From: Isurus oxyrinchus
Lineage: Eukaryota
Direction: 5' to 3'
Assembly (NCBI GenBank): GCA_026770705.1
Contig: JANJGN010000021.1
Span: 97,154,001 to 97,218,000 of the forward strand
DNA length: 64,000 nucleotides
The notes under the pieces are model-generated. The model searched no databases. It saw only the letters and a program-made list of their open reading frames with translations, and was not told where the DNA came from. Every line of letters starts with the position of its first letter. The first letter of the stretch is position 1. The position numbers and the translations under genes were made by a program. Of this stretch, positions 1 to 40,828 are shown piece by piece.

Positions 1-285
1 GATCTCTTTCAATTACTTCCTTTATCATTGTCATTTTACTGTGGCATTGTCTCAACTATACTCTCTATCACACTGACAAAGTTGAGTTAGTTTTTCTACC
101 GCCACTTTCCTGCCAGCTCGTTGCCCATTTGCCCCAGTGGTCCACCTGTGCTTTGAAAGCATTGGCTACACATCGATTTTGTGGGTGCATGCAGCCAGAT
201 ACTGTATAAGCAGCGTCGACATCGAAAAATTCGGACCCGATTGCTATCGAAATTTTCTTACGTGTCTTGTCATTCAGTCATTGTT

Positions 286-410
286 GGAAGTAAAATTGAA
301 ATCCTTGCGAGGAAATACAGCAGCATTCTGGCACAATCTTTGGAAATGAAATCAGACTGAACTTTGCCAGTCTAAGACTCCCAGCACTTTCCTGCTTTAA
401 TTTCAGACTT
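286..410. mobile_element. Decayed PLE terminal fragments in inverted arrangement (minus ~286-362, plus ~365-410); recurs in every unit
   Basis: In a diverged unit, TCTGGCAGCATC (57825-57836) is identical to PLE 40709-40720. CTGGCA (328-333) and TGCCAG (365-370) are inverted. Confidence 0.5.
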
Positions 411-522
411 AGCGTTTGCGCTTTTGTGCCAAACATCCGCCCTACAACAGACATCATCAAAAGCACAACCTTTGGCACAGTTAACCAGCATAAGCCCCTT
501 ACATTTCAATCTCTGCGCAGCA

Positions 523-726
523 CTGATGAAGAGGCTTAGGGCCACAGATGTTAACTCTATCCTCTCTCGTAACAAATGTTGCCAGTGCAGCTCGGCATTT
601 CTGTTATTTTCACTTTTGACTTCACATTTGCACCATTTGCATTATGTTAGCTAAACTTACCCCTTGTTTCTATCTGCACAGTAGCTGCTTGATCAGCTCG
701 GCACTTGCAGCATTTCTGTTGGCATT
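523..726 (+). mobile_element. Decayed Penelope-like 3'-terminal modules (two in tandem, first with a fossil hammerhead); recurs in every unit
   Basis: CTGATGAAGAGGCTTAGGGCCACAGATGTTAACTCT...AAATGTTGCCAG..GCTCGGCATTTC resembles the young PLE end (minus strand of 40673-40774: CTGTCGAAGGGTC...GAAACGTCAACTCT...GATGCTGCCAGACCTGCTGAGATTTTCCAG). Second copy at ~650-726. Confidence 0.6.
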
Positions 727-2099
727 GGAGACGTTGGTTTTGGGAAGCTTTGTTCCAATTCACAGAAAATTGTTCTCTTCAAATCCAGAGAAAATTATTC
801 TGTTCAGTTGCACTTCATTTTGTCTTGGAGTTATTCCACACCCTTTTATGATGGCACTGCCAAACCTGGTGGACATTCAACATGTATTCCCTAATCAAGA
901 AAGTTTTTCAAGGTGAAACTTCAACTTATGCAGCTGTTAATGTCACTTTAAATTACACGCAAACCGATGGCGCTACCAGTTGTTGCATAAAACCTCTGAT
1001 TTCTTCTCCTCCACGTGTTGTTTGGTCTCATCGTGGTGACAGGGGAGCAGATCTTTTCAATTAGTGTGCAAGAAATTGATTTCTATGACAATGTGCAACG
1101 ATTGTTACTATGGCCTGTGAAGAAACTGTTGAAGGAGCATGATGTTATACTAGGTGCCCAGAAGTGGCGAAAAAGTACTATATTCAAGGTTGTGCCCTTT
1201 TGTAACTCCAATGTGGGAACAACGGACAAGAAGTCATCTTCCAAAAAAATATGTATATATATATTTCACTTTAGAAACTGCAATGCACTTTTGTTCCATT
1301 TTGCGTAATCGAATGAGCTGCTTTGTAAAGCTATTGCCCTGAAACTGGCAGTAAAGAAGAATCAATGGGGAGCAGACTTGCACAAGCACGAAGTACATGT
1401 CGGAATCTCATATGCATTCAACAAATTGACGTTCCAGAGAGCCGGGAGGAGAGCTCTGTAGTTAGTAAATCAGTTGAAGTGGGCTATCTTTCTTGCCAAC
1501 CAAAGCAATCTTCAATGTGAGAGCCTATTGGCCTGGAGGGTGCGCTTCCATAACTTTTTACTTCATATCAGGGATAGGTCCTACGCTGAATCCTGGTAAA
1601 ACATTGTTTTGCTTTGTGGCAGCAGCAACATCCGTTCTCAGGTAATTTCATAACCCTGATGCATTAGTTCAGTTTTCATATCGAAATCTGCTGTCAGACT
1701 TCCTGCACACCTGTAACATTTACACTTTCCATTCCTGCTTTACAGCATGTGCAGTGTTTTCGTTTTGTGAGCATGAAGCTGGAGGATATCTTACAATCAT
1801 ATTTTAGAAATGCCGACTCTAATTCGGACTGCTGGACTTTGAACAGCTGTATTATTAACTAAATGGAGACTGCCAAGTACCACGAAGACAAACTTTCGGA
1901 ATATGTTTTCGTTTCCTTCTTTCAATGCAATGTCTGGAATTTGTGGCCAAAGAACAGGAAATTTTGGAAGCTTGGATGCTCAATTCACTTTTCTGCGTGA
2001 GGCTTGCCGTGCGATCGAGCACATTTTTCGAAGTTTTTGGTTGTGAAAATGTGCTACCAGCCTGCAGCTTGGCGGTCCATGCCAGCAGCGACGGGTGGC

Positions 2100-2171
2100 G
2101 CCGTGATCGTATAGTGGTTAGTACTCTGCGTTGTGGCCGCAGTAACCTCGGTTCGAATCCGAGTCACGGCA
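2100..2171 (+). tRNA. tRNA-His-GTG: tRNA-His(GTG) copy 1, intact
   Basis: GCCGTGATCGTATAGTGGTTAGTACTCTGCGTTGTGGCCGCAGTAACCTCGGTTCGAATCCGAGTCACGGCA: full cloverleaf, A/B boxes, anticodon GTG, A73. Matches the canonical vertebrate tRNA-His as I recall it, except U44. Confidence 0.97.
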
Positions 2172-2187
2172 TTGCATCTTTCTGTTC

Positions 2188-2191
2188 TTTT
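2188..2191 (+). terminator. Pol III oligo-T terminator (representative; recurs ~17 nt after most tRNA copies)
   Basis: ...CTGTTCTTTTGC downstream of the tRNA. Mutated in copy 18 (TTCT), copy 24 (TATT) and copies 25/26. Confidence 0.7.
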
Positions 2192-4446
2192 GCTGGAATA
2201 ACAGGGAGGAATGTTCAAAATTGCAACACCAGTTTGTAATGTGAAAGTGCAATTCATAATTTCAATATAACACCCCACTAGTCTGTCTTTTGTTATCCAG
2301 AGTACAATCCAACCCCACATCAGATGTATCTGCCTGCCCAATTCACTGATCTCTTTCAATTACTTCCTTTTTCATTGTCATCTTACTGTGGCATTGTCTC
2401 AACTATACTCTCTATCACACTGACAAAGTTGAGTTAGTTTTTCTACCGCCACTTTCCTGCCAGCTCGTTGCCCATTTGCCCCAGTGGTCCACCTGTGCTT
2501 TGAAAGCATTGGCTACACATCGATTTTGTGGGTGCATGCAGCCAGATACTGTATAAGCAGCGTCGACATCGAAAAATTCGGACCCGATTGCTATCGAAAT
2601 TTTCTTACGTGTCTTGTCATTCAGTCATTGTTGGAAGTAAAATTGAAATCCTTGCGAGGAAATACAGCAGCATTCTGGCACAATCTTTGGAAATGAAATC
2701 AGACTGAACTTTGCCAGTCTAAGACTCCCAGCACTTTCCTGCTTTAATTTCAGACTTAGCGTTTGCGCTTTTGTGCCAAACATCCGCCCTACAACAGACA
2801 TCATCAAAAGCACAACCTTTGGCACAGTTAACCAGCATAAGCCCCTTACATTTCAATCTCTGCGCAGCACTGATGAAGAGGCTTAGGGCCACAGATGTTA
2901 ACTCTATCCTCTCTCGTAACAAATGTTGCCAGTGCAGCTCGGCATTTCTGTTATTTTCACTTTTGACTTCACATTTGCACCATTTGCATTATGTTAGCTA
3001 AACTTACCCCTTGTTTCTATCTGCACAGTAGCTGCTTGATCAGCTCGGCACTTGCAGCATTTCTGTTGGCATTGGAGACGTTGGTTTTGGGAAGCTTTGT
3101 TCCAATTCACAGAAAATTGTTCTCTTCAAATCCAGAGAAAATTATTCTGTTCAGTTGCACTTCATTTTGTCTTGGAGTTATTCCACACCCTTTTATGATG
3201 GCACTGCCAAACCTGGTGGACATTCAACATGTATTCCCTAATCAAGAAAGTTTTTCAAGGTGAAACTTCAACTTATGCAGCTGTTAATGTCACTTTAAAT
3301 TACACGCAAACCGATGGCGCTACCAGTTGTTGCATAAAACCTCCGATTTCTTCTCCTCCACGTGTTGTTTGGTCTCATCGTGGTGACAGGGGAGCAGATC
3401 TTTTCAATTAGTGTGCAAGAACTTGATTTCTATGACAATGTGCAACGATTGTTACTATGGCCTGTGAAGAAACTGTTGAAGGAGCATGATGTTATACTAG
3501 GTGCCCAGAAGTGGCGAAAAAGTACTATATTCAAGGTTGTGCCCTTTTGTAACTCCAATGTGGGAACAACGGACAAGAAGTCATCTTCCAAAAAAATATG
3601 TATATATATATTTCACTTTAGAAACTGCAATGCACTTTTGTTCCATTTTGCGTAATCGAATGAGCTGCTTTGTAAAGCTATTTCCCTGAAACTGGCAGTA
3701 AAGAAGAATCAATGGGGAGCAGACTTGCACAAACACGAAGTACATGTCGGAATCTCATATGCATTCAACAAATTGATGTTCCAGAGAGCCGGGAGGAGAG
3801 CTCTGTAGTTAGTAAATCAGTTGAAGTGGGCTATCTTTCTTGCCAACCAAAGCAATCTTCAATGTGAGAGCCTATTGGCCTGGAGGGTGCGCTTCCATAA
3901 CTTTTTACTTCATATCAGGGATAGGTCCTACGCTGAATCCTGGTAAAACATTGTTTTGCTTTGTGGCAGCAGCAACATCCGTTCTCAGGTAATTTCATAA
4001 CCCTGATGCATTAGTTCAGTTTTCATATCGAAATCTGCTGTTAGACTTCCTGCACACCTGTAACATTTACACTTTCCATTCCTGCTTTACAGCATGTGCA
4101 GTGTTTTCGTTTTGTGAGCATGAAGCTGGAGGATATCTTACAATCATATTTTAGAAATGCCGACTCTAATTCGGACTGCTGGACTTTGAACAGCTGTATT
4201 ATTAACTAAATGGAGACTGCCAAGTACCACGAAGACAAACTTTCGGAATATGTTTTCGTTTCCTTCTTTCAATGCAATGTCTGGAATTTGTGGCCAAAGA
4301 ACAGGAAATTTTGGAAGCTTGGATGCTCAATTCACTTTTCTGCGTGAGGCTTGCCGTGCGATCGAGCACATTTTTCGAAGTTTTTGGTTGAGAAAATGTG
4401 CTACCAGCCTGCAGCTTGGCGGTCCATGCCAGCAGCGACGGGTGGC

Positions 4447-4518
4447 GCCGTGATCGTATAGTGGTTAGTACTCTGCGTTGTGGCCGCAGTAACCTCGGTT
4501 CGAATCCGAGTCACGGCA
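4447..4518 (+). tRNA. tRNA-His-GTG: tRNA-His(GTG) copy 2, intact
   Basis: Identical to copy 1. Confidence 0.97.
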
Positions 4519-6794
4519 TTGCATCTTTCTGTTCTTTTGCTGGAATAACAGGGAGGAATGTTCAAAATTGCAACACCAGTTTGTAATGTGAAAGTGCAAT
4601 TCATAATTTCAATGTAACACCCCACTAGTCTGTCTTTTGTTATCCAGAGTACAATCCAACCCCACATCAGATGTATCTGCCTGCCCAATTCACTGATCTC
4701 TTTCAATTACTTCCTTTATCATTGTCATTTTACTGTGGCATTGTCTCAACTATACTCTCTATCACACTGACAAAGTTGAGTTAGTTTTTCTACCGCCACT
4801 TTCCTGCCAGCTCGTTGCCCATTTGCCCCAGTGGTCCACCTGTGCTTTGAAAGCATTGGCTACACATCGATTTTGTGGGTGCATGCAGCCAGATACTGTA
4901 TAAGCAGCGTCGACATCGAAAAATTCGGACCCGATTGCTATCGAAATTTTCTTACGTGTCTTGTCATTCAGTCATTGTTGGAAGTAAAATTGAAATCCTT
5001 GCGAGGAAATACAGCAGCATTCTGGCACAATCTTTGGAAATGAAATCAGACTGAACTTTGCCAGTCTAAGACTCCCAGCACTTTCCTGCTTTAATTTCAG
5101 ACTTAGCGTTTGCGCTTTTGTGCCAAACATCCGCCCTACAACAGACATCATCAAAAGCACAACCTTTGGCACAGTTAACCAGCATAAGCCCCTTACATTT
5201 CAATCTCTGCGCAGCACTGATGAAGAGGCTTAGGGCCACAGATGTTAACTCTATCCTCTCTCGTAACAAATGTTGCCAGTGCAGCTCGGCATTTCTGTTA
5301 TTTTCACTTTTGACTTCACATTTGCACCATTTGCATTATGTTAGCTAAACGTACCCCTTGTTTCTATCTGCACAGTAGCTGCTTGATCAGCTCGGCACTT
5401 GCAGCATTTCTGTTGGCATTGGAGACGTTGGTTTTGGGAAGCTTTGTTCCAATTCACAGAAAATTGTTCTCTTCAAATCCAGAGAAAATTATTCTGTTCG
5501 GTTGCACTTCATTTTGTCTTGGAGTTATTCCACACCCTTTTATGATGGCACTGCCAAACCTGGTGGACATTCAACATGTATTCCCTAATCAAGAAAGTTT
5601 TTCAAGGTGAAACTTCAACTTATGCAGCTGTTAATGTCACTTTAAATTACACGCAAACCGATGGCGCTACCAGTTGTTGCATAAAACCTCCGATTTCTTC
5701 TCCTCCACGTGTTGTTTGGTCTCATCGTGGTGACAGGGGAGCAGATCTTTTCAATTAGTGTGCAAGAACTTGATTTCTATGACAATGTGCAACGATTGTT
5801 ACTATGGCCTGTGAAGAAACTGTTGAAGGAGCATGATGTTATACTAGGTGCCCAGAAGTGGCGAAAAAGTACTATATTCAAGGTTGTGACCTTTTGTAAC
5901 TCCAATGTGGGAACAACGGACAAGAAGTCATCTTCCAAAAAAAATATGTATATATATATTTCACTTTAGAAACTGCAATGCACTTTTGTTCCATTTTGCG
6001 TAATCGAATGAGCTGCTTTGTAAAGCTATTTCCCTGAAACTGGCAGTAAAGAAGAATCAATGGGGAGCAGACTTGCACAAACACGAAGTACATGTCGGAA
6101 TCTCATATGCATTCAACAAATTGACGTTCCAGAGAGCCGGGAGGAGAGCTCTGTAGTTAGTAAATCAGTTGAAGTGGGCTATCTTTCTTGCCAACCAAAG
6201 CAATCTTCAATGTGAGAGCCTATTGGCCTGGAGGGTGCGCTTCCATAACTTTTTACTTCATATCAGGGATAGGTCCTACGCTGAATCCTGGTAAAACATT
6301 GTTTTGCTTTGTGGCAGCAGCAACATCCGTTCTCAGGTAATTTCATAACCCTGATGCATTAGTTCAGTTTTCATATCGAAATCTGCTGTTAGACTTCCTG
6401 CACACCTGTAACATTTACACTTTCCATTCCTGCTTTACAGCATGTGCAGTGTTTTCGTTTTGTGAGCATGAAGCTGGAGGATATCTTACAATCATATTTT
6501 AGAAATGCCGACTCTAATTCGGACTGCTGGACTTTGAACAGCTGTGTTATTAACTAAATGGAGACTGCCAAGTACCACGAAGACAAACTTTCGGAATATG
6601 TTTTCGTTTCCTTCTTTCAATGCAATGTCTGGAATTTGTGGCCAAAGAACAGGAAATTTTGGAAGCTTGGATGCTCAATTCACTTTTCTGCGTGAGGCTT
6701 GCCGTGCGATCGAGCACATTTTTCGAAGTTTTTGGTTGAGAAAATGTGCTACCAGCCTGCAGCTTGGCGGTCCATGCCAGCAGCGACGGGTGGC

Positions 6795-6866
6795 GCCGTG
6801 ATCGTATAGTGGTTAGTACTCTGCGTTGTGGCCGCAGTAACCTCGGTTCGAATCCGAGTCACAGCA
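6795..6866 (+). tRNA. tRNA-His-GTG: tRNA-His(GTG) copy 3, variant G70A (C3:A70 mismatch)
   Basis: 3' end TCACAGCA. Confidence 0.9.
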
Positions 6867-9142
6867 TTGCATCTTTCTGTTCTTTTGCTGGAATAACAGG
6901 GAGGAATGTTCAAAATTGCAACACCAGTTTGTAATGTGAAAGTGCAATTCATAATTTCAATGTAACACCCCACTAGTCTGTCTTTTGTTATCCAGAGTAC
7001 AATCCAACCCCACATCAGATGTATCTGCCTGCCCAATTCACTGATCTCTTTCAATTACTTCCTTTATCATTGTCATTTTACTGTGGCATTGTCTCAACTA
7101 TACTCTCTATCACACTGACAAAGTTGAGTTAGTTTTTCTACCGCCACTTTCCTGCCAGCTCGTTGCCCATTTGCCCCAGTGGTCCACCTGTGCTTTGAAA
7201 GCATTGGCTACACATCGATTTTGTGGGTGCATGCAGCCAGATACTGTATAAGCAGCGTCGACATCGAAAAATTCGGACCCGATTGCTATCGAAATTTTCT
7301 TACGTGTCTTGTCATTCAGTCATTGTTGGAAGTAAAATTGAAATCCTTGCGAGGAAATACAGCAGCATTCTGGCACAATCTTTGGAAATGAAATCAGACT
7401 GAACTTTGCCAGTCTAAGACTCCCAGCACTTTCCTGCTTTAATTTCAGACTTAGCGTTTGCGCTTTTGTGCCAAACATCCGCCCTACAACAGACATCATC
7501 AAAAGCACAACCTTTGGCACAGTTAACCAGCATAAGCCCCTTACATTTCAATCTCTGCGCAGCACTGATGAAGAGGCTTAGGGCCACAGATGTTAACTCT
7601 ATCCTCTCTCGTAACAAATGTTGCCAGTGCAGCTCGGCATTTCTGTTATTTTCACTTTTGACTTCACATTTGCACCATTTGCATTATGTTAGCTAAACGT
7701 ACCCCTTGTTTCTATCTGCACAGTAGCTGCTTGATCAGCTCGGCACTTGCAGCATTTCTGTTGGCATTGGAGACGTTGGTTTTGGGAAGCTTTGTTCCAA
7801 TTCACAGAAAATTGTTCTCTTCAAATCCAGAGAAAATTATTCTGTTCGGTTGCACTTCATTTTGTCTTGGAGTTATTCCACACCCTTTTATGATGGCACT
7901 GCCAAACCTGGTGGACATTCAACATGTATTCCCTAATCAAGAAAGTTTTTCAAGGTGAAACTTCAACTTATGCAGCTGTTAATGTCACTTTAAATTACAC
8001 GCAAACCGATGGCGCTACCAGTTGTTGCATAAAACCTCCGATTTCTTCTCCTCCACGTGTTGTTTGGTCTCATCGTGGTGACAGGGGAGCAGATCTTTTC
8101 AATTAGTGTGCAAGAACTTGATTTCTATGACAATGTGCAACGATTGTTACTATGGCCTGTGAAGAAACTGTTGAAGGAGCATGATGTTATACTAGGTGCC
8201 CAGAAGTGGCGAAAAAGTACTATATTCAAGGTTGTGACCTTTTGTAACTCCAATGTGGGAACAACGGACAAGAAGTCATCTTCCAAAAAAAATATGTATA
8301 TATATATTTCACTTTAGAAACTGCAATGCACTTTTGTTCCATTTTGCGTAATCGAATGAGCTGCTTTGTAAAGCTATTTCCCTGAAACTGGCAGTAAAGA
8401 AGAATCAATGGGGAGCAGACTTGCACAAACACGAAGTACATGTCGGAATCTCATATGCATTCAACAAATTGACGTTCCAGAGAGCCGGGAGGAGAGCTCT
8501 GTAGTTAGTAAATCAGTTGAAGTGGGCTATCTTTCTTGCCAACCAAAGCAATCTTCAATGTGAGAGCCTATTGGCCTGGAGGGTGCGCTTCCATAACTTT
8601 TTACTTCATATCAGGGATAGGTCCTACGCTGAATCCTGGTAAAACATTGTTTTGCTTTGTGGCAGCAGCAACATCCGTTCTCAGGTAATTTCATAACCCT
8701 GATGCATTAGTTCAGTTTTCATATCGAAATCTGCTGTTAGACTTCCTGCACACCTGTAACATTTACACTTTCCATTCCTGCTTTACAGCATGTGCAGTGT
8801 TTTCGTTTTGTGAGCATGAAGCTGGAGGATATCTTACAATCATATTTTAGAAATGCCGACTCTAATTCGGACTGCTGGACTTTGAACAGCTGTGTTATTA
8901 ACTAAATGGAGACTGCCAAGTACCACGAAGACAAACTTTCGGAATATGTTTTCGTTTCCTTCTTTCAATGCAATGTCTGGAATTTGTGGCCAAAGAACAG
9001 GAAATTTTGGAAGCTTGGATGCTCAATTCACTTTTCTGCGTGAGGCTTGCCGTGCGATCGAGCACATTTTTCGAAGTTTTTGGTTGAGAAAATGTGCTAC
9101 CAGCCTGCAGCTTGGCGGTCCATGCCAGCAGCGACGGGTGGC

Positions 9143-9214
9143 GCCGTGATCGTATAGTGGTTAGTACTCTGCGTTGTGGCCGCAGTAACCTCGGTTCGAA
9201 TCCGAGTCACAGCA
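9143..9214 (+). tRNA. tRNA-His-GTG: tRNA-His(GTG) copy 4, variant G70A
   Basis: Same as copy 3. Confidence 0.9.
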
Positions 9215-11489
9215 TTGCATCTTTCTGTTCTTTTGCTGGAATAACAGGGAGGAATGTTCAAAATTGCAACACCAGTTTGTAATGTGAAAGTGCAATTCAT
9301 AATTTCAATGTAACACCCCACTAGTCTGTCTTTTGTTATCCAGAGTACAATCCAACCCCACATCAGATGTATCTGCCTGCCCAATTCACTGATCTCTTTC
9401 AATTACTTCCTTTATCATTGTCATTTTACTGTGGCATTGTCTCAACTATACTCTCTATCACACTGACAAAGTTGAGTTAGTTTTTCTACCGCCACTTTCC
9501 TGCCAGCTCGTTGCCCATTTGCCCCAGTGGTCCACCTGTGCTTTGAAAGCATTGGCTACACATCGATTTTGTGGGTGCATGCAGCCAGATACTGTATAAG
9601 CAGCGTCGACATCGAAAAATTCGGACCCGATTGCTATCGAAATTTTCTTACGTGTCTTGTCATTCAGTCATTGTTGGAAGTAAAATTGAAATCCTTGCGA
9701 GGAAATACAGCAGCATTCTGGCACAATCTTTGGAAATGAAATCAGACTGAACTTTGCCAGTCTAAGACTCCCAGCACTTTCCTGCTTTAATTTCAGACTT
9801 AGCGTTTGCGCTTTTGTGCCAAACATCCGCCCTACAACAGACATCATCAAAAGCACAACCTTTGGCACAGTTAACCAGCATAAGCCCCTTACATTTCAAT
9901 CTCTGCGCAGCACTGATGAAGAGGCTTAGGGCCACAGATGTTAACTCTATCCTCTCTCGTAACAAATGTTGCCAGTGCAGCTCGGCATTTCTGTTATTTT
10001 CACTTTTGACTTCACATTTGCACCATTTGCATTATGTTAGCTAAACTTACCCCTTGTTTCTATCTGCACAGTAGCTGCTTGATCAGCTCGGCACTTGCAG
10101 CATTTCTGTTGGCATTGGAGACGTTGGTTTTGGGAAGCTTTGTTCCAATTCACAGAAAATTGTTCTCTTCAAATCCAGAGAAAATTATTCTGTTCGGTTG
10201 CACTTCATTTTGTCTTGGAGTTATTCCACACCCTTTTATGATGGCACTGCCAAACCTGGTGGACATTCAACATGTATTCCCTAATCAAGAAAGTTTTTCA
10301 AGGTGAAACTTCAACTTATGCAGCTGTTAATGTCACTTTAAATTACACGCAAACCGATGGCGCTACCAGTTGTTGCATAAAACCTCCGATTTCTTCTCCT
10401 CCACGTGTTGTTTGGTCTCATCGTGGTGACAGGGGAGCAGATCTTTTCAATTAGTGTGCAAGAACTTGATTTCTATGACAATGTGCAACGATTGTTACTA
10501 TGGCCAGTGAAGAAACTGTTGAAGGAGCATGATGTTATACTAGGTGCCCAGAAGTGGCGAAAAAGTACTATATTCAAGGTTGTGCCCTTTTGTAACTCCA
10601 ATGTGGGAACAACGGACAAGAAGTCATCTTCCAAAAAAATATGTATATATATATTTCACTTTAGAAACTGCAATGCACTTTTGTTCCATTTTGCGTAATC
10701 GAATGAGCTGCTTTGTAAAGCTATTTCCCTGAAACTGGCAGTAAAGAAGAATCAATGGGGAGCAGACTTGCACAAACACGAAGTACATGTCGGAATCTCA
10801 TATGCATTCAACAAATTGACGTTCCAGAGAGCCGGGAGGAGAGCTCTGTAGTTAGTAAATCAGTTGAAGTGGGCTATCTTTCTTGCCAACCAAAGCAATC
10901 TTCAATGTGAGAGCCTATTGGCCTGGAGGGTGCGCTTCCATAACTTTTTACTTCATATCAGGGATAGGTCCTACGCTGAATCCTGGTAAAACATTGTTTT
11001 GCTTTGTGGCAGCAGCAACATCCGTTCTCAGGTAATTTCATAACCCTGATGCATTAGTTCAGTTTTCATATCGAAATCTGCTGTTAGACTTCCTGCACAC
11101 CTGTAACATTTACACTTTCCATTCCTGCTTTACAGCATGTGCAGTGTTTTCGTTTTGTGAGCATGAAGCTGGAGGATATCTTACAATCATATTTTAGAAA
11201 TGCCGACTCTAATTCGGACTGCTGGACTTTGAACAGCTGTATTATTAACTAAATGGAGACTGCCAAGTACCACGAAGACAAACTTTCGGAATATGTTTTC
11301 GTTTCCTTCTTTCAATGCAATGTCTGGAATTTGTGGCCAAAGAACAGGAAATTTTGGAAGCTTGGATGCTCAATTCACTTTTCTGCGTGAGGCTTGCCGT
11401 GCGATCGAGCACATTTTTCGAAGTTTTTGGTTGTGAAAATGTGCTACCAGCCTGCAGCTTGGCGGTCCATGCCAGCAGCGACGGGTGGC

Positions 11490-11561
11490 GCCGTGATCGT
11501 ATAGTGGTTAGTACTCTGCGTTGTGGCCGCAGTAACCTCGGTTCGAATCCGAGTCACGGCA
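11490..11561 (+). tRNA. tRNA-His-GTG: tRNA-His(GTG) copy 5, intact
   Basis: Identical to copy 1. Confidence 0.97.
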
Positions 11562-13836
11562 TTGCATCTTTCTGTTCTTTTGCTGGAATAACAGGGAGGA
11601 ATGTTCAAAATTGCAACACCAGTTTGTAATGTGAAAGTGCAATTCATAATTTCAATGTAACACCCCACTAGTCTGTCTTTTGTTATCCAGAGTACAATCC
11701 AACCCCACATCAGATGTATCTGCCTGCCCAATTCACTGATCTCTTTCAATTACTTCCTTTATCATTGTCATTTTACTGTGGCATTGTCTCAACTATACTC
11801 TCTATCACACTGACAAAGTTGAGTTAGTTTTTCTACCGCCACTTTCCTGCCAGCTCGTTGCCCATTTGCCCCAGTGGTCCACCTGTGCTTTGAAAGCATT
11901 GGCTACACATCGATTTTGTGGGTGCATGCAGCCAGATACTGTATAAGCAGCGTCGACATCGAAAAATTCGGACCCGATTGCTATCGAAATTTTCTTACGT
12001 GTCTTGTCATTCAGTCATTGTTGGAAGTAAAATTGAAATCCTTGCGAGGAAATACAGCAGCATTCTGGCACAATCTTTGGAAATGAAATCAGACTGAACT
12101 TTGCCAGTCTAAGACTCCCAGCACTTTCCTGCTTTAATTTCAGACTTAGCGTTTGCGCTTTTGTGCCAAACATCCGCCCTACAACAGACATCATCAAAAG
12201 CACAACCTTTGGCACAGTTAACCAGCATAAGCCCCTTACATTTCAATCTCTGCGCAGCACTGATGAAGAGGCTTAGGGCCACAGATGTTAACTCTATCCT
12301 CTCTCGTAACAAATGTTGCCAGTGCAGCTCGGCATTTCTGTTATTTTCACTTTTGACTTCACATTTGCACCATTTGCATTATGTTAGCTAAACTTACCCC
12401 TTGTTTCTATCTGCACAGTAGCTGCTTGATCAGCTCGGCACTTGCAGCATTTCTGTTGGCATTGGAGACGTTGGTTTTGGGAAGCTTTGTTCCAATTCAC
12501 AGAAAATTGTTCTCTTCAAATCCAGAGAAAATTATTCTGTTCGGTTGCACTTCATTTTGTCTTGGAGTTATTCCACACCCTTTTATGATGGCACTGCCAA
12601 ACCTGGTGGACATTCAACATGTATTCCCTAATCAAGAAAGTTTTTCAAGGTGAAACTTCAACTTATGCAGCTGTTAATGTCACTTTAAATTACACGCAAA
12701 CCGATGGCGCTACCAGTTGTTGCATAAAACCTCCGATTTCTTCTCCTCCACATGTTGTTTGGTCTCATCGTGGTGACAGGGGAGCAGATCTTTTCAATTA
12801 GTGTGCAAGAACTTGATTTCTATGACAATGTGCAACGATTGTTACTATGGCCTGTGAAGAATCTGTTGAAGGAGCATGATGTTATACTAGGTGCCCAGAA
12901 GTGGAGAAAAAGTACTATATTCAAGGTTCTGCCCTTTTGTAACTCCAATGTGGGAACAACGGACAAGAAGTCATCTTCCAAAAAAATATGTATATATATA
13001 TTTCACTTTAGAAACTGCAATGCACTTTTGTTCCATTTTGCGTAATCGAATGAGCTGCTTTGTAAAGCTATTTCCCTGAAACTGGCAGTAAAGAAGAATC
13101 AATGGGGAGCAGACTTGCACAAACACGAAGTACATGTCGGAATCTCATATGCATTCAACAAATTGACGTTCCAGAGAGCCGGGAGGAGAGCTCTGTAGTT
13201 AGTAAATCAGTTGAAGTGGGCTATCTTTCTTGCCAACCAAAGCAATCTTCAATGTGAGAGCCTATTGGCCTGGAGGGTGCGCTTCCATAACTTTTTACTT
13301 CATATCAGGGATAGGTCCTACGCTGAATCCTGGTAAAACATTGTTTTGCTTTGTGGCAGCAGCAACATCCGTTCTCAGGTAATTTCATAACCCTGATGCA
13401 TTAGTTCAGTTTTCATATCGAAATCTGCTGTTAGACTTCCTGCACACCTGTAACATTTACACTTTCCATTCCTGCTTTACAGCATGTGCAGTGTTTTCGT
13501 TTTGCGAGCATGAAGCTGGAGGATATGTTACAATCATATTTTAGAAATGCCGACTCTAATTCGGACTGGTGGACTTTGCACAGCTGTATTATTAACTAAA
13601 TGGAGATTGCCAAGCACCACGAAGACAAACTTTCGGAATATGTTTTCGTTTCCTTCTTTCAATGCAATGTCTGGAATTTGTGGCCAAAGAACAGGAAATT
13701 TTGGAAGCTTGGATGCTCAATTCACTTTTCTGCGTGAGGCTTGCCGTGCGATCGAGCACATTTTTCGAAGTTTTTGGTTGTGAAAATGTGCTACCAGCCT
13801 GCAGCTTGGCAGTCGATGCCAGCAGCGACGGGTGAC

Positions 13837-13908
13837 GCCGTGATCGTATAGTGGTTAGTACTCTGCATTGTGGCCGCAGTAACCTCGGTTCGAATCCGAG
13901 TCACGGCA
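13837..13908 (+). tRNA. tRNA-His-GTG: tRNA-His(GTG) copy 6, variant G31A (anticodon-stem mismatch)
   Basis: CTGCATTGTGGCCGCAG. Confidence 0.9.
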
Positions 13909-16183
13909 TTGCATCTTTCTGTTCTTTTGCTGGAATAACAGGGAGGAATGTTCAAAATTGCAACACCAGTTTGTAATGTGAAAGTGCAATTCATAATTTC
14001 AATGTAACACCCCACTAGTCTGTCTTTTGTTATCCAGAGTACAATCCAACCCCACATCAGATGTATCTGCCTGCCCAATTCACTGATCTCTTTCAATTAC
14101 TTCCTTTATCATTGTCATTTTACTGTGGCATTGTCTCAACTATACTCTCTATCACACTGACAAAGTTGAGTTAGTTTTTCTACCGCCACTTTCCTGCCAG
14201 CTCGTTGCCCAGTTACCCCAGTGGTCCACCTGTGCTTTGAAAGCATTGTATACACATCGATTTTGTGGGTGCATGCAGCCAGATACTGTATAAGCAGCGT
14301 CGACATCGAAAAATTCGGACCCGATTGCTATCGAAATTTTCTTACGTGTCTTGTCATTCAGTCATTGTTGGAAGTAAAATTGAAATCCTTGCGAGGAAAT
14401 ACAGCAGCATTCTGGCACAATCTTTGGAAATGAAATCAGACTGAACTTTGCCAGTCTAAGACTCCCAGCACTTTCCTGCTTTAATTTCAGACTTAGCGTT
14501 TGCGCTTTTGTGCCAAACATCCGCCCTACAACAGACATCATCAAAAGCACAACCTTTGGCACAGTTAACCAGCATAAGCCCCTTACATTTCAATCTCTGC
14601 GCAGCACTGATGAAGAGGCTTAGGGCCACAGATGTTAACTCTATCCTCTCTCGTAACAAATGTTGCCAGTGCAGCTCGGCATTTCTGTTATTTTCACTTT
14701 TGACTTCACATTTGCACCATTTGCATTATGTTAGCTAAACTTACCCCTTGTTTCTATCTGCACAGTAGCTGCTTGATCAGCTCGGCACTTGCAGCATTTC
14801 TGTTGGCATTGGAGACGTTGGTTTTGGGAAGCTTTGTTCCAATTCACAGAAAATTGTTCTCTTCAAATCCAGAGAAAATTATTCTGTTCGGTTGCACTTC
14901 ATTTTGTCTTGGAGTTATTCCACACCCTTTTATGATGGCACTGCCAAACCTGGTGGACATTCAACATGTATTCCCTAATCAAGAAAGTTTTTCAAGGTGA
15001 AACTTCAACTTATGCAGCTGTTAATGTCACTTTAAATTACACGCAAACCGATGGCGCTACCAGTTGTTGCATAAAACCTCCGATTTCTTCTCCTCCACGT
15101 GTTGTTTGGTCTCATCGTGGTGACAGGGGAGCAGATCTTTTCAATTAGTGTGCAAGAACTTGATTTCTATGACAATGTGCAACGATTGTTACTATGGCCA
15201 GTGAAGAAACTGTTGAAGGAGCATGATGTTATACTAGGTGCCCAGAAGTGGCGAAAAAGTACTATATTCAAGGTTGTGCCCTTTTGTAACTCCAATGTGG
15301 GAACAACGGACAAGAAGTCATCTTCCAAAAAAATATGTATATATATATTTCACTTTAGAAACTGCAATGCACTTTTGTTCCATTTTGCGTAATCGAATGA
15401 GCTGCTTTGTAAAGCTATTTCCCTGAAACTGGCAGTAAAGAAGAATCAATGGGGAGCAGACTTGCACAAACACGAAGCACATGTCGGAATCTCATATGCA
15501 TTCAACAAATTGACGTTCCAGAGAGCCGGGAGGAGAGCTCTGTAGTTAGTAAATCAGTTGAAGTGGGCTATCTTTCTTGCCAACCAAAGCAATCTTCAAT
15601 GTGAGAGCCTATTGGCCTGGAGGGTGCGCTTCCATAACTTTTTACTTCATATCAGGGATAGGTCCTACGCTGAATCCTGGTAAAACATTGTTTTGCTTTG
15701 TGGCAGCAGCAACATCCGTTCTCAGGTAATTTCATAACCCTGATGCATTAGTTCAGTTTTCATATCGAAATCTGCTGTTAGACTTCCTGCACACCTGTAA
15801 CATTTACACTTTCCATTCCTGCTTTACAGCATGTGCAGTGTTTTCGTTTTGTGAGCATGAAGCTGGAGGATATCTTACAATCATATTTTAGAAATGCCGA
15901 CTCTAATTCGGACTGCTGGACTTTGAACAGCTGTATTATTAACTAAATGGAGACTGCCAAGTACCACGAAGACAAACTTTCGGAATATGTTTTCGTTTCC
16001 TTCTTTCAATGCAATGTCTGGAATTTGTGGCCAAAGAACAGGAAATTTTGGAAGCTTGGATGCTCAATTCACTTTTCTGCGTGAGGCTTGCCGTGCGATC
16101 GAGCACATTTTTCGAAGTTTTTGGTTGAGAAAATGTGCTACCAGCCTGCAGCTTGGCGGTCCATGCCAGCAGCGACGGGTGGC

Positions 16184-16255
16184 GCCGTGATCGTATAGTG
16201 GTTAGTACTCTGCGTTGTGGCCGCAGTAACCTCGGTTCGAATCCGAGTCACGGCA
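16184..16255 (+). tRNA. tRNA-His-GTG: tRNA-His(GTG) copy 7, intact
   Basis: Identical to copy 1. Confidence 0.97.
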
Positions 16256-18530
16256 TTGCATCTTTCTGTTCTTTTGCTGGAATAACAGGGAGGAATGTTC
16301 AAAATTGCAACACCAGTTTGTAATGTGAAAGTGCAATTCATAATTTCAATGTAACACCCCACTAGTCTGTCTTTTGTTATCCAGAGTACAATCCAACCCC
16401 ACATCAGATGTATCTGCCTGCCCAATTCACTGATCTCTTTCAATTACTTCCTTTATCATTGTCATTTTACTGTGGCATTGTCTCAACTATACTCTCTATC
16501 ACACTGACAAAGTTGAGTTAGTTTTTCTACCGCCACTTTCCTGCCAGCTCGTTGCCCATTTGCCCCAGTGGTCCACCTGTGCTTTGAAAGCATTGGCTAC
16601 ACATCGATTTTGTGGGTGCATGCAGCCAGATACTGTATAAGCAGCGTCGACATCGAAAAATTCGGACCCGATTGCTATCGAAATTTTCTTACGTGTCTTG
16701 TCATTCAGTCATTGTTGGAAGTAAAATTGAAATCCTTGCGAGGAAATACAGCAGCATTCTGGCACAATCTTTGGAAATGAAATCAGACTGAACTTTGCCA
16801 GTCTAAAACTCCCAGCACTTTCCTGCTTTAATTTCAGACTTAGCGTTTGCGCTTTTGTGCCAAACATCCGCCCTACAACAGACATCATCAAAAGCACAAC
16901 CTTTGGCACAGTTAACCAGCATAGGCCCCTTACATTTCAATCTCTGCGCAGCACTGATGAAGAGGCTTAGGGCCACAGATGTTAACTCTATCCTCTCTCG
17001 TAACAAATGTTGCCAGTGCAGCTCGGCATTTCTGTTATTTTCACTTTTGACTTCACATTTGCACCATTTGCATTATGTTAGCTAAACTTACCCCTTGTTT
17101 CTATCTGCACAGTAGCTGCTTGATCAGCTCGGCACTTGCAGCATTTCTGTTGGCATTGGAGACGTTGGTTTTGGGAAGCTTTGTTCCAATTCACAGAAAA
17201 TTGTTCTCTTCAAATCCAGAGAAAATTATTCTGTTCGGTTGCACTTCATTTTGTCTTGGAGTTATTCCACACCCTTTTATGATGGCACTGCCAAACCTGG
17301 TGGACATTCAACATGTATTCCCTAATCAAGAAAGTTTTTCAAGGTGAAACTTCAACTTATGCAGCTGTTAATGTCACTTTAAATTACACGCAAACCGATG
17401 GCGCTACCAGTTGTTGCATAAAACCTCCGATTTCTTCTCCTCCACGTGTTGTTTGGTCTCATCGTGGTGACAGGGGAGCAGATCTTTTCAATTAGTGTGC
17501 AAGAACTTGATTTCTATGACAATGTGCAACGATTGTTACTATGGCCAGTGAAGAAACTGTTGAAAGAGCATGATGTTATACTAGGTGCCCAGAAGTGGCG
17601 AAAAAGTACTATATTCAAGGTTGTGCCCTTTTGTAACTCCAATGTGGGAACAACGGACAAGAAGTCATCTTCCAAAAAAATATGTATATATATATTTCAC
17701 TTTAGAAACTGCAATGCACTTTTGTTCCATTTTGCGTAATCGAATGAGCTGCTTTGTAAAGCTATTTCCCTGAAACTGGCAGTAAAGAAGAATCAATGGG
17801 GAGCAGACTTGCACAAACACGAAGTACATGTCGGAATCTCATATGCATTCAACAAATTGACGTTCCAGAGAGCCGGGAGGAGAGCTCTGTAGTTAGTAAA
17901 TCAGTTGAAGTGGGCTATCTTTCTTGCCAACCAAAGCAATCTTCAATGTGAGAGCCTATTGGCCTGGAGGGTGCGCTTCCATAACTTTTTACTTCATATC
18001 AGGGATAGGTCCTACGCTGAATCCTGGTAAAACATTGTTTTGCTTTGTGGCAGCAGCAACATCCGTTCTCAGGTAATTTCATAACCCTGATGCATTAGTT
18101 CAGTTTTCATATCGAAATCTGCTGTTAGACTTCCTGCACACCTGTAACATTTACACTTTCCATTCCTGCTTTACAGCATGTGCAGTGTTTTCGTTTTGTG
18201 AGCATGAAGCTGGAGGATATCTTACAATCATATTTTAGAAATGCCGACTCTAATTCGGACTGCTGGACTTTGAACAGCTGTATTATTAACTAAATGGAGA
18301 CTGCCAAGTACCACGAAGACAAACTTTCGGAATATGTTTTCGTTTCCTTCTTTCAATGCAATGTCTGGAATTTGTGGCCAAAGAACAGGAAATTTTGGAA
18401 GCTTGGATGCTCAATTCACTTTTCTGCGTGAGGCTTGCCGTGCGATCGAGCACATTTTTCGAAGTTTTTGGTTGTGAAAATGTGCTACCAGCCTGCATCT
18501 TGGCGGTCCATGCCAGCAGCGACGGGTGGC

Positions 18531-18602
18531 GCCGTGATCGTATAGTGGTTAGTACTCTGCGTTGTGGCCGCAGTAACCTCGGTTCGAATCCGAGTCACGG
18601 CA
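18531..18602 (+). tRNA. tRNA-His-GTG: tRNA-His(GTG) copy 8, intact
   Basis: Identical to copy 1. Confidence 0.97.
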
Positions 18603-20877
18603 TTGCATCTTTCTGTTCTTTTGCTGGAATAACAGGGAGGAATGTTCAAAATTGCAACACCAGTTTGTAATGTGAAAGTGCAATTCATAATTTCAATGTA
18701 ACACCCCACTAGTCTGTCTTTTGTTATCCAGAGTACAATCCAACCCCACATCAGATGTATCTGCCTGCCCAATTCACTGATCTCTTTCAATTACTTCCTT
18801 TATCATTGTCATTTTACTGTGGCATTGTCTCAACTATACTCTCTATCACACTGACAAAGTTGAGTTAGTTTTTCTACCGCCACTTTCCTGCCAGCTCGTT
18901 GCCCATTTGCCCCAGTGGTCCACCTGTGCTTTGAAAGCATTGGCTACACATCGATTTTGTGGGTGCATGCAGCCAGATACTGTATAAGCAGCGTCGACAT
19001 CGAAAAATTCGGACCCGATTGCTATCGAAATTTTCTTACGTGTCTTGTCATTCAGTCATTGTTGGAAGTAAAATTGAAATCCTTGCGAGGAAATACAGCA
19101 GCATTCTGGCACAATCTTTGGAAATGAAATCAGACTGAACTTTGCCAGTCTAAGACTCCCAGCACTTTCCTGCTTTAATTTCAGACTTAGCGTTTGCGCT
19201 TTTGTGCCAAACATCCGCCCTACAACAGACATCATCAAAAGCACAACCTTTGGCACAGTTAACCAGCATAAGCCCCTTACATTTCAATCTCTGCGCAGCA
19301 CTGATGAAGAGGCTTAGGGCCACAGATGTTAACTCTATCCTCTCTCGTAACAAATGTTGCCAGTGCAGCTCGGCATTTCTGTTATTTTCACTTTTGACTT
19401 CACATTTGCACCATTTGCATTATGTTAGCTAAACTTACCCCTTGTTTCTATCTGCACAGTAGCTGCTTGATCAGCTCGGCACTTGCAGCATTTCTGTTGG
19501 CATTGGAGACGTTGGTTTTGGGAAGCTTTGTTCCAATTCACAGAAAATTGTTCTCTTCAAATCCAGAGAAAATTATTCTGTTCGGTTGCACTTCATTTTG
19601 TCTTGGAGTTATTCCACACCCTTTTATGATGGCACTGCCAAACCTGGTGGACATTCAACATGTATTCCCTAATCAAGAAAGTTTTTCAAGGTGAAACTTC
19701 AACTTATGCAGCTGTTAATGTCACTTTAAATTACACGCAAACCGATGGCGCTACCAGTTGTTGCATAAAACCTCCGATTTCTTCTACTCCACGTGTTGTT
19801 TGGTCTCATCGTGGTGACAGGGGAGCAGATCTTTTCAATTAGTGTGCAAGAACTTGATTTCTATGACAATGTGCAACGATTGTTACTATGGCCTGTGAAG
19901 AATCTGTTGAAGGAGCATGATGTTATACTAGGTGCCCAGAAGTGGAGAAAAAGTACTATATTCAAGGTTGTGCCCTTTTGTAACTCCAATGTGGGAACAA
20001 CGGACAAGAAGTCATCTTCCAAAAAAATATGTATATATATATTTCACTTTAGAAACTGCAATGCACTTTTGTTCCATTTTGCGTAATCGAATGAGCTGCT
20101 TTGTAAAGCTATTTCCCTGAAACTGGCAGTAAAGAAGAATCAATGGGGAGCAGACTTGCACAAACACGAAGTACATGTCGGAATCTCATATGCATTCAAC
20201 AAATTGACGTTCCAGAGAGCCGGGAGGAGAGCTCTGTAGTTAGTAAATCAGTTGAAGTGGGCTATCTTTCTTGCCAACCAAAGCAATCTTCAATGTGAGA
20301 GCCTATTGGCCTGGAGGGTGCGCTTCCATAACTTTTTACTTCATATCAGGGATAGGTCCTACGCTGAATCCTGGTAAAACATTGTTTTGCTTTGTGGCAG
20401 CAGCAACATCCGTTCTCAGGTAATTTCATAACCCTGATGCATTAGTTCAGTTTTCATATCGAAATCTGCTGTTAGACTTCCTGCACACCTGTAACATTTA
20501 CACTTTCCATTCCTGCTTTACAGCATGTGCAGTGTTTTCGTTTTGCGAGCATGAAGCTGGAGGATATGTTACAATCATATTTTAGAAATGCCGACTCTAA
20601 TTCGAACTGGTGGACTTTGCACAGCTGTATTATTAACTAAATGGAGATTGCCAAGCACCACGAAGACAAACTTTCGGAATATGTTTTCGTTTCCTTCTTT
20701 CAATGCAATGTCTGGAATTTGTGGCCAAAGAACAGGAAATTTTGGAAGCTTGGATGCTCAATTCACTTTTCTGCGTGAGGCTTGCCGTGCGATCGAGCAC
20801 ATTTTTCGAAGTTTTTGGTTGTGAAAATGTGCTACCAGCCTGCAGCTTGGCAGTCGATGCCAGCAGCGACGGGTGGC

Positions 20878-20949
20878 GCCGTGATCGTATAGTGGTTAGT
20901 ACTCTGCGTTGTGGCCGCAGTAACCTCGGTTCGAATCCGAGTCACGGCA
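20878..20949 (+). tRNA. tRNA-His-GTG: tRNA-His(GTG) copy 9, intact
   Basis: Identical to copy 1. Confidence 0.97.
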
Positions 20950-23225
20950 TTGCATCTTTCTGTTCTTTTGCTGGAATAACAGGGAGGAATGTTCAAAATT
21001 GCAACACCAGTTTGTAATGTGAAAGTGCAATTCATAATTTCAATGTAACACCCCACTAGTCTGTCTTTTGTTATCCAGAGTACAATCCAACCCCACATCA
21101 GATGTATCTGCCTGCCCAATTCACTGATCTCTTTCAATTACTTCCTTTATCATTGTCATTTTACTGTGGCATTGTCTCAACTATACTCTCTATCACACTG
21201 ACAAAGTTGAGTTAGTTTTTCTACCGCCACTTTCCTGCCAGCTCGTTGCCCATTTACCCCAGTGGTCCACCTGTGCTTTGAAAGCATTGGCTACACATCG
21301 ATTTTGTGGGTGCATGCAGCCAGATACTGTATAAGCAGCGTCGACATCGAAAAATTCGGACCCGATTGCTATCGAAATTTTCTTACGTGTCTTGTCATTC
21401 AGTCATTGTTGGAAGTAAAATTGAAATCCTTGCGAGGAAATACAGCAGCATTCTGGCACAATCTTTGGAAATGAAATCAGACTGAACTTTGCCAGTCTAA
21501 GATTCCCAGCACTTTCCTGCTTTAATTTCAGACTTAGCGTTTGCGCTTTTGTGCCAAACATCCGCCCTACAACAGACATCATCAAAAGCACAACCTTTGG
21601 CACAGTTAACCAGCATAAGCCCCTTACATTTCAATCTCTGCGCAGCACTGATGAAGAGGCTTAGGGCCACAGATGTTAACTCTATCCTCTCTCGTAACAA
21701 ATGTTGCCAGTGCAGCTCGGCATTTCTGTTATTTTCACTTTTGACTTCACATTTGCACCATTTGCATTATGTTAGCTAAACTTACCCCTTGTTTCTATCT
21801 GCACAGTAGCTGCTTGATCAGCTCGGCACTTGCAGCATTTCTGTTGGCATTGGAGACGTTGGTTTTGGGAAGCTTTGTTCCAATTCACAGAAAATTGTTC
21901 TCTTCAAATCCAGAGAAAATTATTCTGTTCGGTTGCACTTCATTTTGTCTTGGAGTTATTCCACACCCTTTTATGATGGCACTGCCAAACCTGGTGGACA
22001 TTCAACATGTATTCCCTAATCAAGAAAGTTTTTCAAGGTGAAACTTCAACTTATGCAGCTGTTAATGTCACTTTAAATTACACGCAAACCGATGGCGCTA
22101 CCAGTTGTTGCATAAAACCTCCGATTTCTTCTCCTCCACGTGTTGTTTGGTCTCATCGTGGTGACAGGGGAGCAGATCTTTTCAATTAGTGTGCAAGAAC
22201 TTGATTTCTATGACAATGTGCAACGATTGTTACTATGGCCTGTGAAGAAACTGTTGAAAGAGCATGATGTTATACTAGGTGCCCAGAAGTGGCGAAAAAG
22301 TACTATATTCAAGGTTGTGCCCTTTTGTAACTCCAATGTGGGAACAACGGACAAGAAGTCATCTTCCAAAAAAAATATGTATATATATATTTCACTTTAG
22401 AAACTGCAATGCACTTTTGTTCCATTTTGCGTAATTGAATGAGCTGCTTTGTAAAGCTATTTCCCTGAAACTGGCAGTAAAGAAGAATCAATGGGGAGCA
22501 GACTTGCACAAACACGAAGTACATGTCGGAATCTCATATGCATTCAACAAATTGACGTTCCAGAGAGCCGGGAGGAGAGCTCTGTAGTTAGTAAATCAGT
22601 TGAAGTGGGCTATCTTTCTTGCCAACCAAAGCAATCTTCAATGTGAGAGCCTATTGTCCTGGAGGGTGCGCTTCCATAACTTTTTACTTCATATCAGGGA
22701 TAGGTCCTACGCTGAATCCTGGTAAAACATTGTTTTGCTTTGTGGCAGCAGCAACATCCGTTCTCAGGTAATTTCATAACCCTGATGCATTAGTTCAGTT
22801 TTCATATCGAAATCTGCTGTTAGACTTCCTGCACACCTGTAACATTTACACTTTCCATTCCTGCTTTACAGCATGTGCAGTGTTTTCGTTTTGTGAGCAT
22901 GAAGCTGGAGGATATCTTACAATCATATTTTAGAAATGCCGACTCTAATTCGGACTGGTGGACTTTGAACAGCTGTATTATTAACTAAATGGAGATTGCC
23001 AAGCACCACGAAGACAAACTTTCGGAATATGTTTTCGTTTCCTTCTTTCAATGCAATGTCTGGAATTTGTGGCCAAAGAACAGGAAATTTTGGAAGCTTG
23101 GATGCTCAATTCACTTTTCTGCGTGAGGCTTGCCGTGCGATCGAGCACATTTTTCGAAGTTTTTGGTTGTGAAAATGTGCTACCAGCCTGCAGCTTGGCG
23201 GTCCATGCCAGCAGCGACGGGTGGT

Positions 23226-23297
23226 GTCGTGATCGTATAGTGGTTAGTACTCTGCGTTGTGGCCGCAGTAACCTCGGTTCGAATCCGAGTCAAGGCA
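23226..23297 (+). tRNA. tRNA-His-GTG: tRNA-His(GTG) copy 10, acceptor-stem variant (C2T, C69A)
   Basis: GTCGTGA...TCAAGGCA. Confidence 0.88.
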
Positions 23298-25572: not shown

Positions 25573-25644
25573 GCCGTGATCGTATAGTGGTTAGTACTCT
25601 GCGTTGTGGCCGCAGTACCCTCGGCTCGAATCCGAGTCATGGCA
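25573..25644 (+). tRNA. tRNA-His-GTG: tRNA-His(GTG) copy 11, B-box variant (T54C, A46C, C69T); possibly inactive
   Basis: GCAGTACCCTCGGCTCGAATCCGAGTCATGGCA. Confidence 0.85.
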
Positions 25645-27918: not shown

Positions 27919-27990
27919 GCCGTGATCGTATAGTGGTTAGTACTCTGCGTTGTGGCCGCAGTAACCTCGGTTCGAATCCGAGTCACGGCA
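27919..27990 (+). tRNA. tRNA-His-GTG: tRNA-His(GTG) copy 12, intact
   Basis: Identical to copy 1. Confidence 0.97.
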
Positions 27991-30266: not shown

Positions 30267-30338
30267 GCCGTGATCGTATAGTGGTTAGTACTCTGCGTTG
30301 TGGCCGCAGTAACCTCGGTTCGAATCCGAGTCACGGCA
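30267..30338 (+). tRNA. tRNA-His-GTG: tRNA-His(GTG) copy 13, intact
   Basis: Identical to copy 1. Confidence 0.97.
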
Positions 30339-32614: not shown

Positions 32615-32686
32615 GCCGTGATCGTATAGTGGTTAGTACTCTGCGTTGTGGCCGCAGTAACCTCGGTTCGAATCCGAGTCACGGCA
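32615..32686 (+). tRNA. tRNA-His-GTG: tRNA-His(GTG) copy 14, intact
   Basis: Identical to copy 1. Confidence 0.97.
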
Positions 32687-34961: not shown

Positions 34962-35033
34962 GCCGTGATCGTATAGTGGTTAGTACTCTGCGTTGTGGCC
35001 GCAGTAACCTCGGTTCGAATCCGAGTCACGGCA
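34962..35033 (+). tRNA. tRNA-His-GTG: tRNA-His(GTG) copy 15, intact
   Basis: Identical to copy 1. Confidence 0.97.
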
Positions 35034-37308: not shown

Positions 37309-37380
37309 GCCGTGATCGTATAGTGGTTAGTACTCTGCGTTGTGGCCGCAGTACCCTCGGCTCGAATCCGAGTCATGGCA
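37309..37380 (+). tRNA. tRNA-His-GTG: tRNA-His(GTG) copy 16, B-box variant identical to copy 11
   Basis: GCAGTACCCTCGGCTCGAATCCGAGTCATGGCA. Confidence 0.85.
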
Positions 37381-39656: not shown

Positions 39657-39727
39657 GCGTGATCGTATAGTGGTTAGTACTCTGCGTTGTGGCCGCAGTA
39701 ACCTCGGTTCGAATCCGAGTCACGGCA
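39657..39727 (+). pseudogene. tRNA-His-GTG: tRNA-His copy 17, 1-nt deletion in the acceptor stem 5' strand
   Basis: GGTGGCGCGTGATC instead of GGTGGCGCCGTGATC; rest intact. Confidence 0.8.
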
Positions 39728-40774: not shown

Positions 40775-40828
40775 TGATTTCGAGTCCAGGAAAGAGTTGA
40801 AATATAAGCTGGTTTAAGGTGTGTGGGA

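Follow-up and report, generated by a model that had tools for sequence, protein, structure and literature searches.

The tRNA-His array and its features

The window, by which we mean the whole 64,000-nt stretch of DNA analysed here (G000:C21:97154001-97218000), consists entirely of a tandem array of tRNA-His genes with a unit of ~2347 nt (~2.35 kb). The array extends beyond the window for ~16.7 kb leftward and ~15.7 kb rightward. The features referred to below are the following:

1..64000, forward strand: tandem array of ~2.35-kb tRNA-His units, with a homogeneous core and a diverged right flank
292..390, reverse strand: second terminus remnant, inverted and head-to-head with the main one (profile search)
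470..620 (limits approximate), forward strand: main Penelope-like terminus remnant, with a profile match at 515-602; each unit has one, which makes 27 in the window
523..557, forward strand: apparently dead minimal type-I hammerhead, with a CTGATGA box, an extra A, helix II arms, a broken GAAA box, a GTT site and AACTC
666..719, forward strand: third terminus remnant, partial, tail part only (11-15 bits)
1610..1705 (limits approximate), forward strand: fourth terminus remnant, very decayed, upstream of the tRNA gene (profile search)
2100..2171, forward strand: tRNA-His(GUG) gene, the first of 25 called in the window, with a period of ~2347 nt
2188..2191, forward strand: first run of four T 3' of the tRNA gene, a likely Pol III terminator; six further runs of at least four T precede the next motif at 2870
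40673..41883, reverse strand: young 5'-truncated Penelope-like insertion in one unit, oriented opposite to the fossil, with a GIY-YIG remnant
40735..40774, reverse strand: hammerhead motif of the young element, with first box CTGTCGA and an intact GAAA box

The units stand head to tail. Their identity is ~99% in the core, 83-95% in the diverged right flank inside the window, and 67-95% at the edges, including those outside the window. A homogenised core with diverged edges, also seen in a tree of 20 units, is the pattern of a tandem array under concerted evolution. The motif region is present in 41 copies within 144 kb (window plus flanks). In the 4.98 Gb of genome searched, copies of the unit were confined to one contig and to one cluster of ~250 kb (at least 37 and at least 67 matches in two genome searches, in which the best candidates were scored). 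The array itself is part of a larger grouping of tRNA-His genes, which are dispersed and occur in either orientation.

Several local observations concern the genes themselves. Dispersed intact tRNA-His genes and many decayed unit fragments occupy the array flanks at ~96.56-97.35 Mb of the same contig (G000:C21), and dispersed tRNA-His genes also occur at C10 146.87 Mb and C28 29.83 Mb. Three successive units around the young insertion (39656-45608) have an altered tRNA 5' end, CGCG instead of GCCG, and a tRNA score of 47.7 vs 61.9 bits, which marks a damaged gene that has expanded locally to a small extent. The tRNA of one unit paralog (locus L127, 2128-2201) was called Tyr(GTA) by ARAGORN and is probably a His gene with an altered anticodon.

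A hammerhead-like motif in the array units

Analysis of the sequence alone had proposed that every tRNA-His unit carries a fossil hammerhead ribozyme, ~700 nt downstream of the tRNA and on its strand. The position was confirmed: the first motif starts at 523, on the tRNA strand, and the motif lies 698 nt past the tRNA end. With a loose pattern it was found in 27 of 27 window units, but the claim does not extend to the dispersed tRNA-His genes, none of which carries the main remnant (0/18 called). The exact motif as originally described is present in 20 of the 27 window units. CTGATGA is kept in 24, and the three most diverged units read ATGATGA or ATGTTGA, the latter in the unit at 62785.

The helix II arms of the first motif lie at 531-535 and 541-545. 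The arm variants originally quoted were all found in place: GAGGC/GCCAC in the core, with an A-A mismatch, GGGGC/GCCTC at 48651-48665, and GAGTC/GGCTC at 62785-62799. The accompanying statement that the arms mostly pair fails for part of the unit types, as two of the five helix II pairs are broken in unit 53320 and three of five in unit 55671.

Rfam reported no hammerhead over the window at gathering score, and none at E up to 10 over 40300-40900, where the fossil and the young element's motif both lie. Since even the motif of the young element is missed, Rfam is blind to motifs of this type. Diverged units also contain a second CTGATGA (46902, 49227, 51574, 56276, 58625, 60999, and 63378), corresponding to window position 1128, where core units read CTGTTGA; no hammerhead context was found behind it.

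Homology to Penelope-like termini

The young insertion is bounded by an 8-bp target duplication, ATTATTCT (40665-40672 and 41884-41891). The family to which it belongs is abundant, with 99% identity between contigs, and has matches to GIY-YIG (E 1.7e-4, just short of the Pfam cut-off) and, in a longer member, to RVT_1 (E 3.7e-8). CTGTCGA replaces CTGANGA in 34/34 matches of this family. The host unit (insertion with duplications at 40665-41891) lacks ~32 nt near 40620. Elsewhere, the endonuclease region of the young element matched within a 3917-aa open frame (G000:C34:10705187-10705489), while other long copies have ~926 aa.

The motif had been assigned to a Penelope terminus on a by-eye alignment to this young element. 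That alignment is at the level of chance: the unit aligned to 40673-41883 with a score of 37 vs 33.7 ± 4.0 in 200 shuffles (maximum 51), which is not significant, and blastn between unit and young element was likewise at chance level. The assignment itself stands on profile homology. A Penelope-end profile, seeded with the young element's end and iterated on 320 kb of unrelated DNA, where it collected 26 ends, matches 515-602 at 25.8 bits (E 2e-7), compared to a maximum of 8.2 bits among 500 shuffled units. In the reverse search, a profile of the array unit matched unrelated Penelope ends down to E 1e-16. An alignment of ~165 nt was also obtained between an old edge copy and each of the two unrelated ends that stand head to head in locus L094, on another contig. 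The homology is to the ends of a family that has a reverse transcriptase and a GIY-YIG endonuclease. These comparisons support reading the motif as the fossil of a Penelope-like terminus whose minimal hammerhead is now dead.

The same profile indicates up to three remnants per unit besides the main one, one of them on the opposite strand, so that end copies occur in direct and inverted arrangement (292-390 on the reverse strand; 515-602 and 666-719 on the forward strand). The inverted remnant at 292-390 is weak in core units and scores 14-21 bits in diverged window units and 35 bits in an edge unit. The fourth (~1610-1705) scores 10-13 bits in diverged units and 22-34 bits in dispersed paralogs. 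Inverted ends of Penelope-like elements are described in PMC3846280 and PMC8557442, and PMC4209133 reports opposite-strand motif pairs 100-700 bp apart, most of its motifs being single ones from truncated elements. A search for an empty insertion site used the paralogs that share the tRNA flank up to the inverted remnant (L115, both L121 genes, and L126); homology fails to resume beyond it (scores 32-35), and no such site could be defined. A tblastn search of 41 units with the 236-aa frame of the young element found no attached coding sequence (best E 0.21).

Loss of the catalytic core

The first box of a minimal hammerhead, C3-U4-G5-A6-N7-G8-A9, is intact in 35/41 copies. The G12-A13-A14 (GAAA) box is found in 0/41 and is missing also in 6/6 further paralogs outside the 144 kb, and the pairing of helices I and II falls short of that of an active ribozyme. 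The broken GAAA box reads AGA after the loss of one base. This one-base deletion at G12 is common to all 47 copies examined, including copies only ~70% identical to the core, and was seen in 0/37 unrelated Penelope ends matched in 860 kb. G12 is described as the general base of the hammerhead (PMC6155905). The most diverged copies have also lost G12, and their arms still read GACTC, as in the dispersed family. The sequence-only reading had noted that the GAAA core reads AGA and had called the motif probably dead; the verdict holds, although the damage is the G12 deletion plus later substitutions rather than substitutions only.

The shared deletion is most simply read as a single lesion in a common ancestor of all 47 copies. 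As it occurs in every copy and in none of the 37 unrelated ends, the ribozyme had likely lost its activity before copying began. In a DNA run from another organism 30/30 unit bins are covered, and the contigs that cross the motif differ by ~10-15%, with no indel listed there; a further DNA run, with 9/30 bins in short pieces, was left out of the unit comparison. The lack of a listed indel across the motif would fit a G12 lesion predating the species split, although a missing row is no proof and substitutions within the motif were not displayed. The shared lesion is a useful marker, since it would make both events, insertion of the end and inactivation of its ribozyme, older than the entire unit family.

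Sequence variation and pairing

The motif diverges like the remaining spacer and is not conserved above it. Among 15 diverged units, the 30-nt motif has a diversity of 0.147 and the spacer one of 0.150; of spacer windows of the same 30-nt length, 56% equal or exceed the motif in conservation. In 20 distinct rows, the proportion of paired cells is 42.5% for helix I and 85.7% for helix II.

The pairing of helix II raises the possibility that the hairpin was co-opted for a non-catalytic RNA- or DNA-structural role in the unit and held by selection. Its 85.7% exceeds the 76.8 ± 4.3% of a neutral-decay simulation at the arms' own divergence, in which rows were treated as independent, and the covariation score was reached by only 9/500 shuffles, a control that ignores the relatedness of the rows. 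The DNA of the second organism moreover spans the whole unit at ~85-90% identity. The rows are related, however, and one double change counted six times explains most of the pairing excess. Pairs altered on both sides number 2, vs 2.2 in shuffles. The covariation rests on one pair, changing from T-A via T-G to G-C, and G-G and T-C states also occur; the arm variation reduces to one double change via unpaired states. The arms are more diverged than the rest of the remnant (0.17 vs 0.12), and the commonest unit type has the A-A mismatch and a predicted fold from which helix II is absent. With the motif as diverse as the spacer, and with dispersed intact tRNA-His genes that lack the motif, a co-opted hairpin is very improbable.

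How the array arose

We consider it highly probable (~0.88) that the motif is a decayed old Penelope end in the spacer of a tRNA-His array, likely inactive before it was copied, and that the array probably grew at the DNA level by unequal crossing-over. Capture of old Penelope debris before DNA-level amplification had been offered originally as the second of two alternatives, and it is the one favoured by the evidence. In a first step, the sequence flanking an old tRNA-His cluster would have received insertions of Penelope ends, which are inserted throughout the genome; the main end would then have lost one base of its GAAA box. Two tRNA-His copies sharing their 3' flank (segment A, the tRNA plus ~650 nt) may have come to lie 2.35 kb apart, on either side of a segment X with the fossil. 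Unequal crossing-over between both A segments would yield (A-X)n-A, and later homogenisation would account for a core that is ~99% identical. The fossil would play no role in the growth of the array.

The layout of the array is consistent with these steps. Measured on a unit profile whose first position is the start of the tRNA, the array opens at position 7 and closes with an isolated piece that spans positions 3-633; an RNA route predicts ends at the cleavage site, which is near position 800. The ends are at the start of a tRNA and ~630 nt past a tRNA, off the cleavage site, which fits unequal crossing-over. A one-unit A-X-A state is found in three dispersed paralogs (L112, L113, and L128), each with a decayed tRNA, a full unit, and an intact tRNA plus ~650 nt, and locus L125 holds a 5'-truncated version of it. 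The A-X-A loci illustrate the probable way in which the array was seeded; crossing-over is here read from the layout, not from observed events. Growth by unequal crossing-over has been proposed for a tRNA array of Arabidopsis (PMC2886086). The two direct remnants on either side of the tRNA have the wrong spacing for recombination between them to have seeded the duplication, and that route was rejected.

The sequence-only reading also coupled a Pol III gene to a ribozyme, with amplification through RNA as its other alternative. In the retrozyme-like form of that alternative, hammerheads spaced by one unit would cleave a read-through RNA, and a Penelope enzyme would reinsert the circularised products in tandem. 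In its favour, each tandem unit has a single motif, lying on the tRNA strand, and animal retrozymes, tandem repeats that carry type-I hammerheads, likely descend from Penelope ends (bioRxiv 10.64898/2026.07.22.740005). Against this stand the core broken by a shared lesion in 47/47 copies, the motif's lack of extra conservation, and array ends that do not match the cleavage site. The unit of 2347 nt compares with RNAs of 170-400 nt in PMC7229834 and families of 51-972 bp in bioRxiv 10.64898/2026.07.22.740005. Runs of at least four T stop Pol III, and seven such runs lie between tRNA and motif, the first 16 nt past the tRNA. Among the best candidates of the genome searches, none was a dispersed copy outside the cluster. 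Complete cores in consecutive units, a short non-coding unit, and genome-wide dispersal of monomers or multimers, the features of a retrozyme, are not seen here. Neither the coupling of a Pol III gene with a ribozyme nor RNA-mediated amplification finds support in these data, and a retrozyme-like origin, which we regard as extremely unlikely, is already largely refuted.

Copying in trans was also weighed: the Penelope enzyme would have copied host DNA between its ends into a first unit, and later growth would be DNA recombination. Trans copying by a Penelope enzyme has been reported for a rotifer gene, and the unit does hold one inverted and several direct ends. The direct remnants around the tRNA, however, are ~1.2 kb apart rather than 2.35 kb, and no target duplication was identified. 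The inverted remnant is moreover common to segment A of dispersed genes that have no main remnant, so that the remnants need not stem from a single insertion. We judge this route to the first unit to be very unlikely.

Relation to known systems

The motif is a remnant of a minimal Penelope hammerhead and is not a retrozyme. It resembles the minimal type-I hammerheads described in metazoan Penelope pseudo-LTRs (Cervera and de la Pena 2014, PMC4209133) in its CTGANGA box, a single additional base ahead of helix II, a G-C closing pair, and a short palindromic helix III region. It differs from them in having lost G12, in a mostly unpaired helix I, in the absence of coding sequence, and in being multiplied inside a tRNA gene array. 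Its head-to-head ends with a partial direct copy recall the inverted and tandem pseudo-LTR layout of EN+ Penelope elements (PMC3846280, PMC8557442), but the remnants are very decayed, no target duplication was found, and the inverted copy may date from an earlier insertion of its own.

Animal non-LTR retrozymes such as newt satellite 2 and Sm-alpha (PMC7229834) are likewise tandem repeats with one Penelope-derived hammerhead motif per unit. The present unit, however, is at least 2.4 times as long as the longest family listed in bioRxiv 10.64898/2026.07.22.740005, its core is dead in all copies, and it is centred on a tRNA, in a single cluster whose ends lie off the cleavage site. As in the Arabidopsis array (PMC2886086), tRNA genes are locally tandem with related spacers; here there is one tRNA-His per 2.35-kb unit, with retroelement debris in the spacer, in an animal genome. 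A search of the accessible literature, with few subscription papers in it, returned no report of a hammerhead remnant in a tRNA array; the supplements to PMC4209133 and bioRxiv 10.64898/2026.07.22.740005 may list cartilaginous-fish motifs. As it stands, the fossil is an ordinary passenger of little consequence.

Penelope ends in the genome and around tRNA genes

The 26 Penelope ends in 320 kb of unrelated DNA give an average of one every ~12 kb, and a random 2.35-kb tile contains an end in 12-13% of cases. Where a genome has an end this often, one hammerhead-like motif per repeat is no evidence of a retrozyme. Only 0.1% of tiles hold three, so three or four remnants per unit are unusual, and chance capture does not fully account for them.

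This excess raises the question of whether insertion or retention of Penelope elements is biased toward tRNA genes, the fossil being one product that was then amplified as DNA. For event counts, matches were merged and unit paralogs excluded; also removed were one L192 repeat copy, two L116 near-copies and the duplicated half of L121. In 14 non-His loci, 11/17 events lie within 1 kb of a tRNA, with 5.7 expected (p 0.004, the best of three distances). Match density is 0.39-0.68 per kb near tRNA genes vs 0.08-0.11 in controls, a 4-8-fold difference in which paralogs are included, and tRNA-His neighbourhoods show 3.3 Penelope events per 10 kb vs 0.7-1.2 elsewhere. At the 10-kb scale, however, 17 events in 14 tRNA loci compare with 20 in 20 paired controls (p 0.23), and in 10 tRNA-His stretches 8/23 events fall within 1 kb with 7.8 expected, that is, no clustering. 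There is no preference for side or strand (5/4/5/3), and tRNA-free stretches 0.4-4 Mb rightward are also rich (18 matches in 60 kb).

The crowding near tRNA genes remains at the level of a hint, and such a bias is on the whole unlikely to have produced the fossil. It is equally doubtful that Penelope elements favour the neighbourhood of tRNA genes, at a distance of ~0.5-1 kb, through targeting linked to Pol III. No description of such targeting for the Penelope class was found in the literature search, and PMC5911963 mentions Penelope once, in passing. If it were true, tRNA arrays would routinely inherit and amplify hammerhead-bearing ends; the crowding would be of specialist interest only if upheld genome-wide. 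The preferred reading, in which an old end was carried along in a growing array, is the one retained here.

Locus L123 (G000:C10:146863001-146873000) has 12 matches in 10 kb around two tRNA-His genes, with 0 matches in the adjacent 6 kb and 0 in two controls 0.3-0.4 Mb off. Three related tRNA-His genes have a different, better preserved Penelope end ~420 nt downstream on the tRNA strand (L116 2501-2598, L118 2487-2584, and L119 2478-2575) and a second end ~700 nt upstream on the other strand. In the search for tRNA genes by pattern, matches resembled members of a dispersed repeat family, and the tRNA-Val search returned mostly one cluster. Among other tRNA repeats, L183, L189, and L190 contain no Penelope end, and L192 has one on the opposite strand, upstream. 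The latter is a 4.5-kb tRNA-Lys repeat with one end per unit (2559-2657 and 7056-7154), in which the GAAA box is intact and the first box is damaged.
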